This document shows, piece by piece, positions 3,833-64,000 of a stretch of DNA of 64,000 nucleotides. Location: the UHGV virus genome UHGV-0351052; one strand, written 5' to 3'. Under the pieces are notes generated by a model, which ran no database searches, was not told the origin of the DNA, and saw nothing but the letters and a program-made list of their open reading frames with translations. Origin of the DNA: a virus. How positions within the stretch are numbered: position 1 is the first letter of the stretch; each line of letters begins with the position of its first letter. The position numbers were made by a program, and so were the translations under genes.

Positions 3833-6800
3833 CAGTAAAAGCACCTTCAGTCACTAGTCTCAGAATTTCCAAGTTATCCGCAAATCAGGTGCAAGTACGC
3901 TGGGATGACGTTGGTGCTAATTTCTACTATTTTGTAGAAATCGCTGAGACAAAAACAGACTCGGGGGAAAATCTCCCGAGTAATCAATACCGATGGATTA
4001 ATTTAGGATATACTGCAAATAACAGCTTCTTTTTTGATGATGCTGATCCATTAACAACATACATTATTAGAGTAGCTACAGCTGCGCAAGATTTTGAGCA
4101 GTCTGATTGGATTTATACCGAAGAGTTTGAAACTTTTGCTACGAATGCTTACACATTTCAAAATATGATTGAAATGCAATTAGCTAATAAATTCATTCAG
4201 GAAAAATTTACTCTTAACAATTCTAATTATGTCAATTTTAATAATGACACTATAATGGCTGCATTGATGAATGAATCGTTTCAATTCAGCCCATCATATG
4301 CTGATGTCTCATCAATCAGTAATTTTATTATTGGCGAAAATGAGTATCATGAAATACAAGGTTCCATTCAGCAAGTGTGTAAGGATATTAACCGAGTTTA
4401 TTTGATGGAATCAGAAGGGATTCTATATCTTTTTGAGCGCTATCAGCCTGTAGTTAAAGTATCTAATGATAAAGGACAAACCTGGAAAGCTGTGAAGCTC
4501 TTCAATGACCGTGTAGGATATCCTTTATCTAAGACAGTATATTACCAATCTGCGAACACAACATACGTTCTAGGATACGACAAGATTTTCTACGGCCGTA
4601 AATCAACTGATGTTAGATGGTCAGCTGATGATGTCAGATTTAGTTCGCAGGATATAACATTTGCTAAACTTGGTGATCAACTTCATTTGGGATTTGATGT
4701 TGAAATCTTTGGTACTTATGCTACATTACCTGCAAATGTATACCGCATTGCAGAAGCTATTACTTGCACCGATGATTACATTTACGTTGTCGCCAGAGAC
4801 AAAGTTAGATACATAAAAACGAGTAATGCACCTATAGATTCTGATCCATTGTCTCCAACATATTCGGAAAGACTTTTTGAACCTGATACAATGACTATAA
4901 CCGGAAATCCTAAAGCAGTATGCTATAAAATGGATTCTATCGGTGATAAAGTTTTTGCTCTTATTATTGGTGAAGTTGAAACATTAAATGCTAATCCTAG
5001 AACATCAAAAATAATTGATTCTGCTGATAAAGGAATATATGTTTTAAATCATGACACGAAAACATGGAAAAGAGTTTTTGGCAACACTGAAGAAGAAAGA
5101 AGACGTATTCAACCTGGATATGCGAATATGTCAACTGATGGTAAATTAGTTTCTCTGTCTTCGAGTAATTTTAAATTTTTAAGTGATAACGTTGTTAATG
5201 ACCCTGAAACTGCAGCGAAATATCAGTTAATCGGTGCTGTTAAATATGAATTTCCTCGTGAATGGCTAGCCGATAAGCATTATCATATGATGGCATTTAT
5301 AGCAGATGAAAAATCTGATTGGGAAACTTTTACGCCTCAACCGATGAAATATTATGCAGAACCATTCTTTAACTGGTCTAAAAAATCTAACACACGTTGT
5401 TGGATAAACAACTCTGACAGAGCTGTAGTAGTTTATGCTGATTTAAAATACACTAAAGTTATAGAAAATATTCCGGAAACATCGCCAGATAGATTAGTTC
5501 ATGAATACTGGGATGATGGTGATTGTACGATAGTAATGCCAAATGTTAAATTCACAGGATTTAAAAAATATGCGTCTGGGATGCTTTTTTATAAATCTTC
5601 TGGTGAAATAATTTCTTACTATGATTTTAACTATCGAGTGAGAGACACGGTTGAAATAATTTGGAAGCCAACTGGAATATTTTTAAAAGCATTTTTACAA
5701 AACCAAGAGCGTGAAACTCCTTGGTCACCAGAAGAAGAGCATGGATTAGCTGACCCTGATTTAAGACCATTGATTGGCACAATGATGCCTGATTCTTATT
5801 TACTACAAGATTCGAATTTTGAGGCATTTTGCGAAGCATATATTCAGTATCTTTCTGATGGATATGGAACTCAGTATAACAATTTACGAAATTTAATTCG
5901 TAATCAGTATCCACGAGAAGAGCATGCATGGGAATATTTGTGGTCAGAGATATATAAAAGAAACATTTATTTGAACGCGGATAAGCGAGATGCTGTAGCA
6001 AGATTTTTTGAATCACGTAGCTATGATTTTTATTCTACTAAAGGAATTGAAGCATCATACAAGTTTCTTTTTAAAGTTCTTTATAATGAAGAAGTTGAAA
6101 TTGAAATTGAATCTGGGGCTGGTACTGAATATGACATAATCGTTCAATCTGATTCTTTGACTGAAGATTTAGTAGGACAAACGATTTATACAGCCACAGG
6201 AAGATGTAATGTTACTTATATAGAAAGAAGCTATTCTAATGGTAAATTGCAATGGACCGTAACTATTCATAATCTTTTGGGAAGATTAATTGCTGGTCAA
6301 GAAGTTAAAGCAGAAAGACTCCCTAGTTTTGAAGGCGAAATTATTCGTGGAGTTAAAGGAAAGGATTTGCTTCAAAACAATATAGACTATATTAATAGAA
6401 GTAGATCATACTATGTAATGAAAATTAAATCCAATTTACCTTCTTCCCGCTGGAAATCTGACGTTATTCGTTTTGTTCATCCAGTAGGATTTGGATTTAT
6501 AGCAATTACCCTTTTAACGATGTTTATTAATGTTGGTTTAACTCTTAAACATACAGAGACTATAATTAATAAATACAAAAACTATAAATGGGATTCTGGA
6601 TTGCCTACTGAATATGCTGATAGAGTAGCTAAATTAACTCCAACCGGTGAAATTGAGCATGATTCAGTAACAGGCGAAGCAATTTATGAGCCTGGCCCAA
6701 TGGCTGGTGTAGAATATCCTCTTCCTAATGACTATAATGCTGAAAATAATAATTCAATATTTCAAGGTCAATTGCCTTCTGAACGACGCAAGTTAATGAG

Positions 6801-59571: not shown

Positions 59572-60074
59572 TTAAAAGTATTTTTTAAAACTCATCATAA
59601 CTTTATCATCAACATCATTATCAATCTGTGCAACAAGGTAAGATGACAGTTCTACTTCTTGTGGCGCGGATTGAACATTATCAGAATTAAGATATTCACG
59701 AATCCAAGGATACGGATGTTTAACCGGAGCATCGGTAATTGGGCATGGAAGACCACACTGTTTCATACGAGATACAGTTAAGTAATCAATAAAGCTCCAC
59801 ATGCTATTTGTATTTAATCCAGGAACATCGCCATCTTTAAATAAATGAACTGCCCAATCTTTTTCTTGGCGGTTAACTTCCATGAAAATATCAACTGCTT
59901 CTTGTTCACACTCTTGAGCAATTTTAACCCATTCATCACCATCAGTGCCAAGTTGAAGTTGACGAATAATATATTGAGTGCCTTTAAGGTGAAGCTGCTC
60001 ATCACGTGCAATGAACTTCATAATCTTGGCATTACCTTCCATGATTTCCATGTTCTTATGGAAGTTAAAGGTAC
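59572..60074 (-). CDS. nrdB: Ribonucleotide reductase small subunit NrdB, exon 2
   Basis: Encodes ...MEIMEGNAKIMKFIARDEQLH... (R2 conserved region) to C-terminus; boundary inferred by restoring the conserved YVSFAC-TFNF junction; uncertain by a few nt. Confidence 0.8.
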
Positions 60075-60668
60075 CGTTATGTTCAATTGAGCTCGCTAAT
60101 TCTCAACCCGTTCTCTTATGAACTGCTACATATTACTATGCAGACCAGACTATATCACAATCCCAGAGGGATTCTCCCCATTTCGAGTCGCTTGACCCTA
60201 CGTCCGAAGACTAGTCGTTGAACCTTGCTTTGCAATTGTCGCCGTGCCATCGTTTATATGTTGATGGTGATAAATCTTTCTTATCACAATATGGACAATT
60301 CAATTGAATTCTATTTGGATTTAATTTGCATCTGTCATTATGTTTTAAATAAAATCCAGGACCTTTACCAATGTGACCGCAGAAATCACATGTGATTTCT
60401 TTTTGTGCAGGATGGGTCCCGTTCTTAACCATTTCTAATGTTTTTGCTGATGTTCTTTTCTTATGGTCTTCCATCAGAATCTTTAGGTATAGGTCCGTTA
60501 GCATCTATCCAAATTTTTCTATAGTTCAATTGTGCATCCTCTTAAAAGTATAATCATATTATACTAATTAAAGGTGCAAGCAAAACCTTGGCTGCTAGTT
60601 TTCCTATAAAGGACTTTCCAGCAATTAAAGGAGTTTTCGATAAACGTTACCGTTTAAAGGCGCATTTT
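60075..60668 (-). mobile_element. Group I self-splicing intron in nrdB (about 594 nt) carrying a degenerate endonuclease ORF
   Basis: Interrupts nrdB between exon 1 (ending ...YVSFA + U) and exon 2; exon 1 ends in U and intron ends in G as expected for group I; boundaries inferred by protein alignment, not by structure modelling. Confidence 0.75.
60211..60504 (-). CDS. Intron-encoded truncated endonuclease-like ORF (I-TevIII-like remnant with Cys-rich zinc-finger-like segment)
   Basis: 97 aa with CDFCGH...CPYCDK; lies wholly within the intron. Confidence 0.65.
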   Translation of the reverse strand: MLTDLYLKILMEDHKKRTSAKTLEMVKNGTHPAQKEITCDFCGHIGKGPGFYLKHNDRCKLNPNRIQLNCPYCDKKDLSPSTYKRWHGDNCKARFND

Positions 60669-61344
60669 ACGCAAAAGATACATAAAAACGAATAGCTTCT
60701 AAGGCATTAATAACGTGCAAACAGAGGTAAAGAGATTTCATTAAAGCACGTTTAGCTTCGGCTTCTTGTTTAATAGCTCGGTTTAAACGAAAGACAGCAT
60801 CAGGAGATTCTTTAGCTAGTTCTACAAATTCTTTAGCATTTTCCCATTCACGGGTTTTAATCAGAACATCATCATAATAGCGTCCAATAGATTCGGCTCG
60901 TTTCATGATTGCTTCATCTAATACAATCTCATCAAATACCTTTGACGGATCAGTATAAAGATTTCGCATGATATGTGTATATGAACGGCTGTGAATAGTT
61001 TCACTAAAAGTCCACGTAGCAACCCATGTATCAAGGCTTGGGTCTGAAATTAATGACATAAGTACAGCAGACGGCGCACGACCCTGAATGCTATCCAAAA
61101 GTGATTGATACTTCAGATTATTAGTAAAAATATTTTGCTGATACTGAGGAAGCTTATTAAACTGTGCAGCATCCATCATTAAGTTTACTTCTTCGGGACG
61201 CCAGAAAAAACTGATCTGTCGCTCAATGAGTTCTTCAAATACTCGATGTCGTTGAATATCATATCGAGCTAAACCTAATCCAGAACCAAAGAACATCGGT
61301 TCATTCAAAACATCAACTGGATTTGTATTAAAAACTGTGCTCAT
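60669..61344 (-). CDS. nrdB: Ribonucleotide reductase small subunit NrdB, exon 1
   Basis: Begins MSTVFNTNPVDVLNEPMFFGSG...; ends at conserved EAIRFYVSFA. Confidence 0.85.
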
Positions 61345-61395
61345 AATTTTTCCTCTTAGTTAATAGATAGTGACTCGTCCGTGAGTCAAATTATA

Positions 61396-63660
61396 TCATA
61401 ATTTACAGGATGAACAGTCTTCAGCTTTTGGAGTTTCTATTTCATAATCATCAGTACCAGAACCATCACGGGTATTATGATAATAGAAATTTTTAATGCC
61501 ATAATACCATCCGTATAGCATGTCATCAATCATTATTGACATTGGAACCTTTCCTTTTGGAAAAATCTGCGGGTCATAATATGTATTCGCTGAAGCCGAT
61601 TGACATATCCATTTCAGCATAATAGCTACCTGCGTAAGATAAGGTTTATTACCTTTCTTAGCTAATTTCCATGTATAATCATAGAGGTCTATGTTATGCT
61701 CAATATTGGGCACGACTTGATTAAAGGAGCCCTCTTTTGATTCTTTAACAGAGACTGGTCCACGTGGAGGCTCGATACCGTTTGTACTGTTAGAAACTTG
61801 GGAAGATGACTCACACGGCATAAGTGCTGATAATGTGCTATTACGGATGCCAAAGAGCTTAAGGTCTTCCCGCAGCGACGACCAGTCACAAACGTATTTT
61901 GGAGCTGCGATTTGGTCAATCTTTTTATTGTACCAGTCGATAGGTAATTCGCCTCGAGACCAACGAGTGTCTGAATAATATTCGCAAGGTCCTTTTTCTT
62001 TGGCGAGCTTAATGGATGCTTTAATGAGTCCATACTGTAATCTCTCAAATAGTTCATGTGTTAAATCGTTAGCATCTTCATAAGAAGCAAAGTTACTTGC
62101 CAGCCAAGCTGCATAGTTAGTAACACCTACACCAAGGTTACGACGCTTTTTAGCTTTTTCTGCTTCAGGAACTGGATATCCTTGGTAATCCAAAAGATTA
62201 TCAAGAGCACGAACCTGGACTTCTGCCAATTCATTAATTTTATCTTGGTCTTGCCAGTCAAAATTATCCAGTACGAAGGCAGAGAGAGTACAGAGCCCAA
62301 TTTCAGCATCAGGACTATTCACATCATTTGTTGGAATAGCAATTTCACAGCACAAGTTACTCTGACGAATAGGTGCCTTTTCACGAATAAACGGAGTATA
62401 GTTATTCGTATTATCAATGAACTGCACATAAATCCTTGCTGTTCCTGAACGTTCAGTCATGAGCAATTCAAATAGTTCACGGGCTTTAATACGCTTTTTA
62501 CGAATATTAGGGTCTTTTTCTGCTGCTTCGTATAATTCACGGAAACGGTCTTGGTCTTTAAAATAAGAATAATAAAGCTCTCCGCCCATTTCATGGGGAC
62601 TGAACAAAGTAATGTAATCGTTCTTTCCAAAACGTTCCATCATCAAATCATTCAGTTGAACACCATAATCCATATGACGAATGCGGTTTTCTTCTACGCC
62701 TTTGTTATTTTTCAAAACAAGAAGATTTTCAACTTCCAAATGCCAAATAGGATAATAAGCAGTAGCAGCGCCGCCACGAATTCCACCCTGTGAGCATGAT
62801 TTAACAGCAGTCTGAAAATGTTTCCAAAAAGGAATAACACCAGTATGGCGTACTTCACCCATGCCAATCTTAGAACCTTCGGCACGAATCATACCAACGT
62901 TAATACCGATTCCAGCTCGTTTGGAAATATATTCAACAATTGAAGCAGAAGCCTTATTGATAGACTTCAGTGAATCGCCTGCCTCAATAACAACGCATGA
63001 ACTAAACTGCCGAGTTGGAGTACGGCAACCAGCCATAATAGGAGTTGGTAATGAAATCTGTCGAGTAGATACTGCTTCATAAAAACGGATAACATGTTTT
63101 AATCTATCAACAGGTTCATCTTGATGCAGTGCCATTCCAATAGCCATAAATGCAAACTGTGGAGTTTCATAAATTTGACCAGTGGTTTTATCTTTAACTA
63201 AATATTTTTCTTTTAATTGCATCGCCCCGGAATAAGTAAATTCCATATCCCGTTCGTGCTTAATTTTTGATTCTAAAAATGTAATTTCTTCTGCTGAATA
63301 TTTTGACAATAATTCAGGGTCATATTTACCTTCATTTACACAGTAAGAAATATGGTCAATAAATGAACGTGGTTCATACTGCCCATAAACATGCTTACGA
63401 AGAGCGAACATTAAACAGCGTGCAGCTACATATTGATAATCAGGTTCTTCAACCGAAATAGAATTCGCAGCGGCCTTAATGACAATAGTCTGAATATCAT
63501 CAGTTGTCATTCCATCACGGAGATAAGATTTAATATTTTCATATAATTCATAAGGATCTACTGATGTTCCTTCAGCTGCCCAAGATAAAACTTTAATAAT
63601 TTTTTGTGGGTCAAAGCTCTGAGAAACACCACTACTTTTGATAACATTAATTAATTGCAT
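61396..63660 (-). CDS. nrdA: Ribonucleotide reductase large subunit NrdA
   Basis: Start at MQLINVIKSSGVSQSFDPQKI gives 754 aa; track ORF has a 32-codon upstream extension that overlaps the divergent promoter region. Confidence 0.95.
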   Translation of the reverse strand: MQLINVIKSSGVSQSFDPQKIIKVLSWAAEGTSVDPYELYENIKSYLRDGMTTDDIQTIVIKAAANSISVEEPDYQYVAARCLMFALRKHVYGQYEPRSFIDHISYCVNEGKYDPELLSKYSAEEITFLESKIKHERDMEFTYSGAMQLKEKYLVKDKTTGQIYETPQFAFMAIGMALHQDEPVDRLKHVIRFYEAVSTRQISLPTPIMAGCRTPTRQFSSCVVIEAGDSLKSINKASASIVEYISKRAGIGINVGMIRAEGSKIGMGEVRHTGVIPFWKHFQTAVKSCSQGGIRGGAATAYYPIWHLEVENLLVLKNNKGVEENRIRHMDYGVQLNDLMMERFGKNDYITLFSPHEMGGELYYSYFKDQDRFRELYEAAEKDPNIRKKRIKARELFELLMTERSGTARIYVQFIDNTNNYTPFIREKAPIRQSNLCCEIAIPTNDVNSPDAEIGLCTLSAFVLDNFDWQDQDKINELAEVQVRALDNLLDYQGYPVPEAEKAKKRRNLGVGVTNYAAWLASNFASYEDANDLTHELFERLQYGLIKASIKLAKEKGPCEYYSDTRWSRGELPIDWYNKKIDQIAAPKYVCDWSSLREDLKLFGIRNSTLSALMPCESSSQVSNSTNGIEPPRGPVSVKESKEGSFNQVVPNIEHNIDLYDYTWKLAKKGNKPYLTQVAIMLKWICQSASANTYYDPQIFPKGKVPMSIMIDDMLYGWYYGIKNFYYHNTRDGSGTDDYEIETPKAEDCSSCKL

Positions 63661-63685
63661 AAGTCCTCTGTAGTAAGTTACCCCA

Positions 63686-63693
63686 TATAAATA
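63686..63693 (+). promoter_or_regulatory. Late promoter box TATAAATA upstream of the I-TevI-like gene
   Basis: Exact TATAAATA, followed by AGGAGA SD and ATG at 63716. Confidence 0.55.
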
Positions 63694-63715
63694 TAATTTT
63701 ATATAGGAGAATATA

Positions 63716-64000
63716 ATGAAATCTGGAATATATGCTATTATAAACACTAAAACCAATAAGCACTATATAGGAAGTGCAATTAATTTTGAAGAACGATGGA
63801 AACGACACTTTAAAGATTTAGATAATGGAAATCATCATTCAATAAAGCTGCAGCGTTCTTATAATAAGCATGGGAAAGATGCTTTCGTATGTAAAATCAT
63901 AGAAGAACTTCCATACGAAAAATCTATCATTATTGAACGTGAAAATTATTGGATACATGAATATGACTCAAAGGAAAATGGGTATAATATAGCAGACGCA
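63716..64000 (+). CDS. I-TevI-like GIY-YIG homing endonuclease, N-terminal part (partial, runs off window end)
   Basis: Hand translation MKSGIYAIINTKTNKHYIGSAINFEERWKRHFKDLDNGNHHSIKLQRSYNKHGKDAFVCKIIEELPYEKSIIIERENYWIHEYDSKENGYNIADA: GIY...YIG, R, H, E and N catalytic-domain landmarks, very similar to I-TevI as I recall it. Confidence 0.8.
   Translation, partial: MKSGIYAIINTKTNKHYIGSAINFEERWKRHFKDLDNGNHHSIKLQRSYNKHGKDAFVCKIIEELPYEKSIIIERENYWIHEYDSKENGYNIADA

Follow-up and report, generated by a model that had tools for sequence, protein, structure and literature searches.

The right-hand end of the window (the whole 64,000-nucleotide stretch of viral DNA that was analyzed) probably, with a likelihood of about four in five, carries the 5′ third of a mobile cassette that encodes a free-standing homing endonuclease of the I-TevI lineage and replaces nrdA.1. 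Judged by its sequence, the gene is a GIY-YIG homing endonuclease of a known kind that belongs to the I-TevI lineage, with neither intron residence nor a zinc finger. I-TevI, the model enzyme among GIY-YIG homing endonucleases, supplies the nuclease module in engineered Tev-fusion genome editors. The element holds little surprise for a specialist, and public records already name the gene "homing endonuclease", "I-TevI-like" or "intron endonuclease"; a literature search for a paper describing it found nothing specific.

The window comes from a Tequatrovirus, a T4-like coliphage, and carries rnlA, denA, an intron-split nrdB, and nrdA on the minus strand, as in T4. The closest phage records are mosaic relative to the window, with only 96–97% identity over 8 kb. 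Nine records from the eight closest phages (Ozark, RPN226, ECO07P5, TB004, N2, LH2, CJY920, and sutha) match positions 63400–64000 end to end, with 97–98.5% DNA identity over 601 bp. All related records label the divergent neighbor of the endonuclease gene as nrdA, and the start codons of the two genes are separated by 55 bp. The window ends at codon 95 of 243, and the C-terminal part of the ORF was read from relatives. The features are listed in Table 1.

Table 1. Features at the right-hand end of the window and the basis for each assignment
Feature	Position	Strand	Basis or remark
nrdA, ribonucleotide reductase large subunit, 754 aa	61396–63660	-	ORF list; 99% identity to RB51 NrdA
Left junction, retained nrdA ribosome-binding region, GAGGACTT on minus strand	63661–63668	-	Same sequence in both genera
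Homing-endonuclease cassette (putative), left 332 bp of ~780 bp	63669–64000	+	Similarity break; cassette matches
T4-type late promoter motif TATAAATA, exact consensus	63686–63693	+	22 nt upstream of ATG; candidate
Shine-Dalgarno AGGAGA	63705–63710	+	5 nt before ATG; direct sequence reading
Endonuclease ORF, codons 1–95, GIY-YIG catalytic domain	63716–64000	+	Pfam, I-TevI, and Ozark/TB004 matches

The endonuclease gene and its product

The ORF is open from its ATG at 63716 to the window edge at 64000, with 95 codons visible. An earlier reading of the letters alone (the sequence-only reading) had assigned these to an I-TevI-type N-terminal catalytic domain, and database comparison agrees. The window peptide matches the Pfam GIY-YIG family (PF01541) at E=1.5e-15 and 57.7 bits (cut-off 22.6), and it is 71% identical to residues 1–94 of T4 I-TevI (E=9e-47). 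The residues aligned with I-TevI Y6, Y17, R27, H40, E75, and N90 are conserved. The full-length ORF has 243 codons and is intact in all eight closest Tequatrovirus phages. A frameshift just past the window edge is unlikely in the window's own copy because its 285 visible coding nucleotides are 100% identical to those of Ozark and TB004, both of which have intact copies.

The 243-residue protein of the relatives consists of the GIY-YIG domain, a linker, NUMOD3 (Pfam, E=2e-6), and a helix-turn-helix. The I-TevI_DNA-bd model also aligns, at E=2.3e-4 and 21.4 bits, which is under the Pfam cut-off of 27 bits. A full-length relative matches the I-TevI nuclease-domain structures 1MK0/1LN0 at E of ~4e-40 and the I-TevI DNA-binding structure 1I3J at E=2.8e-7, and it is 46% identical to I-TevI over 242 residues. 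The DNA-binding half is clearly less conserved with respect to I-TevI than the 71%-identical nuclease domain. In a 12-member alignment, the four intron-borne members all have the I-TevI zinc finger (CxC...CxxC) in the linker, whereas the eight free-standing ones all lack it.

Besides the nuclease domain and the catalytic residues, the gene here and I-TevI have in common NUMOD3 with a C-terminal helix-turn-helix, a conserved "FGDT..HP" at the start of the linker, a similar size (243 and 245 residues, respectively), a late-type promoter ~22–23 nt upstream of the ATG, and a genomic association with td. They differ in that the gene here is free-standing and runs antisense to td and nrdA, whereas I-TevI lies in the td group I intron, and in that the protein here lacks the zinc finger and has a DNA-binding half far more diverged than its nuclease domain. 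The promoter is TAATAAATA in I-TevI but the exact consensus TATAAATA here. The T4 SegA–G endonucleases (e.g., SegF and SegG) are likewise intergenic GIY-YIG enzymes with a patchy occurrence in T4-like phages, and spread by double-strand-break repair with co-conversion of the flanks would be expected for both (PMC2988022, PMC3984707). Unlike the seg genes, the gene here replaces nrdA.1 instead of lying in a spacer and is antisense to its neighbors. The endonuclease is much closer to I-TevI than would be expected of a generic Seg protein.

Four positions in helix 1 set the motif preference of I-TevI (PMC12774661), and two of them differ here, with I-TevI E36 and C39 being D and N. As a natural I-TevI variant with a different linker and DNA-binding module, the protein could serve the study of linker-length and cleavage-motif rules.

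The cassette and its promoter

The cassette consists of a late promoter motif, a ribosome site, and the 243-codon ORF, with ~50 bp of non-coding DNA. T4, RB51, and wV7, which lack the endonuclease, follow the window as far as ...TTGCAT AAGTCCTC at 63668, eight bases beyond the nrdA start codon, and then continue into nrdA.1. From 63669 on, the match is to the cassette found in Ozark and in Klebsiella phages. This left junction is nucleotide-identical in cassette-bearing Tequatrovirus and Jiaodavirus. On the right side of the cassette-bearing phages, similarity restarts within nrdA.2, ~20 nt from its 3′ end. The cassette occupies the place of nrdA.1 between nrdA and td, and nrdA.1 itself was sought throughout the window and is absent. 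In Tequatrovirus, nrdA.2 sits between the endonuclease gene and td. In Jiaodavirus, the cassette replaces nrdA.1 together with a small downstream ORF, and the endonuclease stop codon overlaps that of td by 4 nt. The sequence-only reading had described an insertion in the intergenic region upstream of nrdA; the position was correct, but a simple insertion into a spacer does not fit, as nrdA.1 has been replaced.

NrdA.1 is a DUF4326 protein with 64–71% identity across the T4-like subfamilies compared. Acinetobacter Lazarusvirus phages that lack the endonuclease have nrdA.1 and a small ORF as the alternative allele, and the same choice of nrdA.1 or an antisense endonuclease is seen in an IMG/VR contig (L035). 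Acinetobacter phage AB1I1M-1 has both a homologous endonuclease gene and nrdA.1, which counts against the overall reading and is a caveat on an nrdA.1 target. An extra, unrelated small ORF in KP179 and PKO111 was counted against the cassette model. It lies on the minus strand between nrdA and the cassette (KP179, locus L003, 4764–4994; PKO111, locus L004, 4740–4985), encodes 76 and 81 residues, respectively, and is unannotated. It has no PHROG match, and the other cassette-bearing phages have nothing there.

The sequence-only reading also gave the gene its own late promoter and an AGGAGA, and both motifs are present as it described. The presence of TATAAATA is by itself weak evidence for a promoter because the window holds 21 copies compared to 9.1 expected. 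However, the motif is kept in 13/13 full-length copies of the gene, and all homologues examined have it 22–26 nt before the ATG, even those with only 45–58% identity and diverged surroundings. This conservation amid diverged surroundings is the best evidence that the motif may function as a promoter.

The predicted leader of the late transcript has a minimum free energy of -2.6 kcal/mol (z=0.62). In I-TevI, an RNA structure masks the ribosome site, whereas no such structure was found in the predicted leader here. The gene is oriented in the direction of late transcription. Given this late-strand orientation (16 of the 21 TATAAATA copies are on the plus strand) and the unmasked ribosome site, the endonuclease should be expressed late and independently of the antisense early and middle transcripts of nrdA and td.

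In T4, segD is the sole homing-endonuclease gene oriented against its neighbors according to a 2010 review, and it has no identifiable promoter of its own (PMC2988022). Whereas segD lies between the late genes 23 and 24, the gene here lies among early and middle genes and runs in the direction of late transcription. Since only segD is antisense among the T4 endonuclease genes and it is promoterless, an antisense gene with a consensus late promoter to itself is mildly unusual.

Within the 5′ coding region of the endonuclease, the minus strand contains TGCTTAT-N13-TATAAT (63762–63737), which resembles a MotA-dependent middle promoter. It faces nrdA and lies ~75 nt upstream of the nrdA ATG. This loose middle-promoter pattern occurs 14 times on the minus strand of the window. 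As a lead only, the element could replace an nrdA-proximal promoter that was lost with nrdA.1.

Distribution, mobility, and target

The gene is present in 9 of ~500 Tequatrovirus records and in 18 of the 209 records that match the Klebsiella-phage (Jiaodavirus) locus, and a homologous endonuclease gene is found in 6 of 40 Acinetobacter records. Only a few percent of genomes carry the cassette, between conserved flanks and with sharp boundaries whose junctions were mapped to the nucleotide. The cassettes of E. coli Tequatrovirus and Klebsiella Jiaodavirus are 91–93% identical, while the flanking nrdA and td are only 71–73% identical. Between Ozark and Klebsiella phage KP179, identity is 92.8% for the cassette and 98.2% for the nuclease domain; the first 285 nt of the gene in the window are 98.2% identical to KP179. 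Copies are more diverse within Jiaodavirus (85–99% identity) than within Tequatrovirus (at least 98.9% over the coding region of the nuclease domain), which suggests that the cassette entered the coliphages recently. For recent genetic exchange between T4-like phages of E. coli and of Klebsiella, the cassette serves as a clear marker, a point that bears on genome mosaicism in therapeutic phages.

All 13 close copies have 243 codons, and dN/dS is 0.05–0.16, which indicates purifying selection. Patchiness, sharp boundaries, excess identity across lineages, and purifying selection together make up the signature that would be expected of an active homing endonuclease gene.

More distant homologues with 45–58% identity occupy the same site in T4-like phages of Erwinia and Acinetobacter, between nrdA and td, antisense and convergent with td. 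The homologue of Erwinia phage Gravdalen is frameshifted, while that of the IMG/VR contig L035 is intact. Acinetobacter Lazarusvirus phages (e.g., Kimel) and Acinetobacter phage AB1I1M-1 have a homologue in the same antisense position. In Acinetobacter phage Porter (locus L021, 3001–4815), the stretch from nrdA to td holds two tandem antisense I-TevI-like genes, and each of them has a TATAAATA of its own; the nrdA-proximal copy is frameshifted and the td-proximal copy is intact.

It is very unlikely that the gene is no longer mobile, being either a decaying remnant or a protein domesticated as a DNA-binding regulator or as a nuclease against competing phages. The frameshifts in Gravdalen and in one of the two Porter copies, which reflect the usual decay cycle, are in keeping with this view, and I-TevI itself doubles as a repressor (PMC2988022). 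However, 13/13 close copies are intact, dN/dS is low over the whole ORF, the catalytic residues are conserved, and the excess of identity across genera indicates recent transfer. Operator-like matches of the promoter and flanks, sought because I-TevI represses its own expression, are at chance level only: between the cassette promoter region and the cassette-less nrdA–td region, the best match is 16/22, no better than in shuffled sequences.

As a mobile cassette, the element would spread by intronless homing. The gp55-RNA polymerase would transcribe the endonuclease gene from its own promoter late in infection. The protein, by homology a monomeric two-domain enzyme, would use its C-terminal NUMOD3 and helix-turn-helix module to bind DNA, and its GIY-YIG domain would make a staggered double-strand break at a distance from the binding site in co-infecting genomes without the cassette. 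The cut would probably be at a CNNNG-like motif, as with I-TevI. Recombination-dependent repair from a cassette-bearing genome would then swap nrdA.1 for the cassette.

The favored guess, at somewhat less than even odds, places the cleavage target in the nrdA.1 segment that the cassette replaces, or at the border of that segment, because it is the only constant difference between carriers and non-carriers. Several blocks of nrdA.1 are identical at 22–23 of 24 nt between genera. Fixed substitutions linked to the endonuclease were sought in 900 nt of nrdA and in 600–1100 nt on the td side, and none were found in either genus (small samples: five carriers compared to four non-carriers in Jiaodavirus, two of the four being possibly the same phage, and 8–9 compared to eight in Tequatrovirus). 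Free-standing T4 endonucleases, as is known for SegF, can also cut their own genome. Flanks without protective polymorphisms are therefore still compatible with a target in nrdA or td.

Two other candidates were set aside. A haplotype at the 5′ end of nrdA that appeared linked to the endonuclease in eight copies is common to many phages without the gene, and the window has the RB51 haplotype. The I-TevI site of td was likewise rejected as an unsupported target, as it does not distinguish Jiaodavirus carriers of the endonuclease from non-carriers.

One block of nrdA.1, GAGCTATTATATCACCATG (RB51, locus L012, ~4320–4345, and the homologous site in Mineola, locus L018), is identical at 22/24 nt between genera. 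Read on the minus strand, it is TGATATAAT, which looks like an extended -10 promoter element and lies upstream of nrdA; the block also codes for the CHGD motif that is invariant in DUF4326. It could act as a promoter or be cut by the endonuclease, or its conservation could simply reflect coding constraint.

Relation to td, its introns, and neighboring elements

The sequence-only reading held that the gene is free-standing, on the opposite strand to nrdA, and not intron-borne, and a comparison of the region upstream of nrdA in relatives upholds this. In 13/13 full-length loci, minus-strand nrdA lies on one side and nrdA.2 or td on the other, and a plus-strand host gene for an intron was sought and is absent. 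The gene might otherwise be an intron-encoded I-TevI orthologue, residing in a group I intron of a plus-strand gene that starts beyond the window. The strong similarity to I-TevI and the intron-borne relatives in Citrobacter phage Ursula and Proteus phage phiP4-3 would suit such a residence. However, all 13 loci are flanked by minus-strand genes, and the ~50 bp of non-coding DNA in the cassette leaves no room for a group I intron. Rfam detects the td intron of N2 (locus L008, 5620–5869, 72.6 bits) but nothing around the endonuclease gene, a search of low power in that the ORF-containing td intron of RPN226, the positive control, was also missed. In addition, four cassette-bearing phages have I-TevI as well, as a distinct gene in a real td intron. 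Intron residence thus appears effectively refuted by the relatives and retains next to no probability.

The td gene varies among the eight Tequatrovirus carriers: four have an intron with a separate I-TevI, two have an ORF-less intron, and two are intronless. The two with the ORF-less td group I intron are N2 and CJY920 (locus L011), where the intron lies ~0.6 kb from the free-standing gene. By analogy, this layout would be the one expected for collaborative homing, as described for F-CphI/psbA and for the DNA polymerase gene of phage PhiI, in which a free-standing gene likewise lies beside an intron-capable gene (PMC3984707).

Under a collaborative (trans) homing model, the enzyme would cut the td intron-insertion site and mobilize td introns, including ORF-less ones, along with itself. 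The lineage is physically tied to td, with free-standing relatives at the td 3′ end in four phage groups, and the pairing in N2 and CJY920 resembles the published one (PMC3984707). Nonetheless, the 87 nt of td that surround the I-TevI site show at most a one-base difference between intronless-td Jiaodavirus with and without the endonuclease, which indicates no self-protection at this site; the td intron-insertion site here thus differs from those of the collaborative systems in having no endonuclease-linked polymorphism. The less conserved DNA-binding half without a zinc finger and the intervening nrdA.2 in Tequatrovirus also argue against this model, which is unlikely.

Intron-borne relatives are found in T4, Citrobacter phage Ursula, Proteus phage phiP4-3, and one IMG/VR contig. 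Neighbor-joining trees of the full length and of the C-terminal half separate the intron-borne and free-standing groups, while the N-terminal tree is unresolved. It is doubtful, though conceivable, that the free-standing lineage without a zinc finger represents the sister or ancestral state of I-TevI and that the enzyme of N2 and CJY920 may act in trans on td. In this scenario, a family already tied to the td neighborhood would have invaded the td intron once and gained a zinc finger, and in N2 and CJY920 the free-standing enzyme would act in trans on td and mobilize the ORF-less intron. If true, the best-studied intron system would offer a living example of the proposed route by which a free-standing endonuclease gives rise to a mobile group I intron. 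The td-site comparison, however, disfavors this pre-intron or trans-acting reading. The I-TevI family has two niches around td, one within the intron and one downstream and antisense, which bears on how mobile introns form.

Other endonuclease genes and their remnants are found nearby. In the window, nrdB (minus strand, 59572–61344) is split by a group I intron into exon 1 (60667–61344) and exon 2 (59572–60051). The intron has an Rfam Intron_gpI match at 60126–60362 that is sub-threshold at 33 bits, and it contains a truncated I-TevIII ORF of 97 residues (60211–60504), as in T4. In T4, mobE mobilizes the defunct nrdB intron; here mobE is absent. The gap between nrdA and nrdB had been read as ~50 bp without an endonuclease gene, and it measures 51 bp (61345–61395) and contains no ORF.

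In RPN226 (locus L005, 1093–4261), nrdA is annotated as two pieces with an HNH endonuclease ORF (2072–2782) between them. This looks like a split gene, resembling the insertion of mobE in nrdA of Aeromonas phage Aeh1 (T4 mobile-element review, PMC2988022). In two of the cassette-bearing phages, N2 (locus L008, 388–1980) and LH2 (locus L009, 388–1956), the nrdA–nrdB gap contains an ORF of ~520–530 residues annotated as "Hef-like homing endonuclease". The nrd–td region can thus hold up to three different endonuclease genes per genome.
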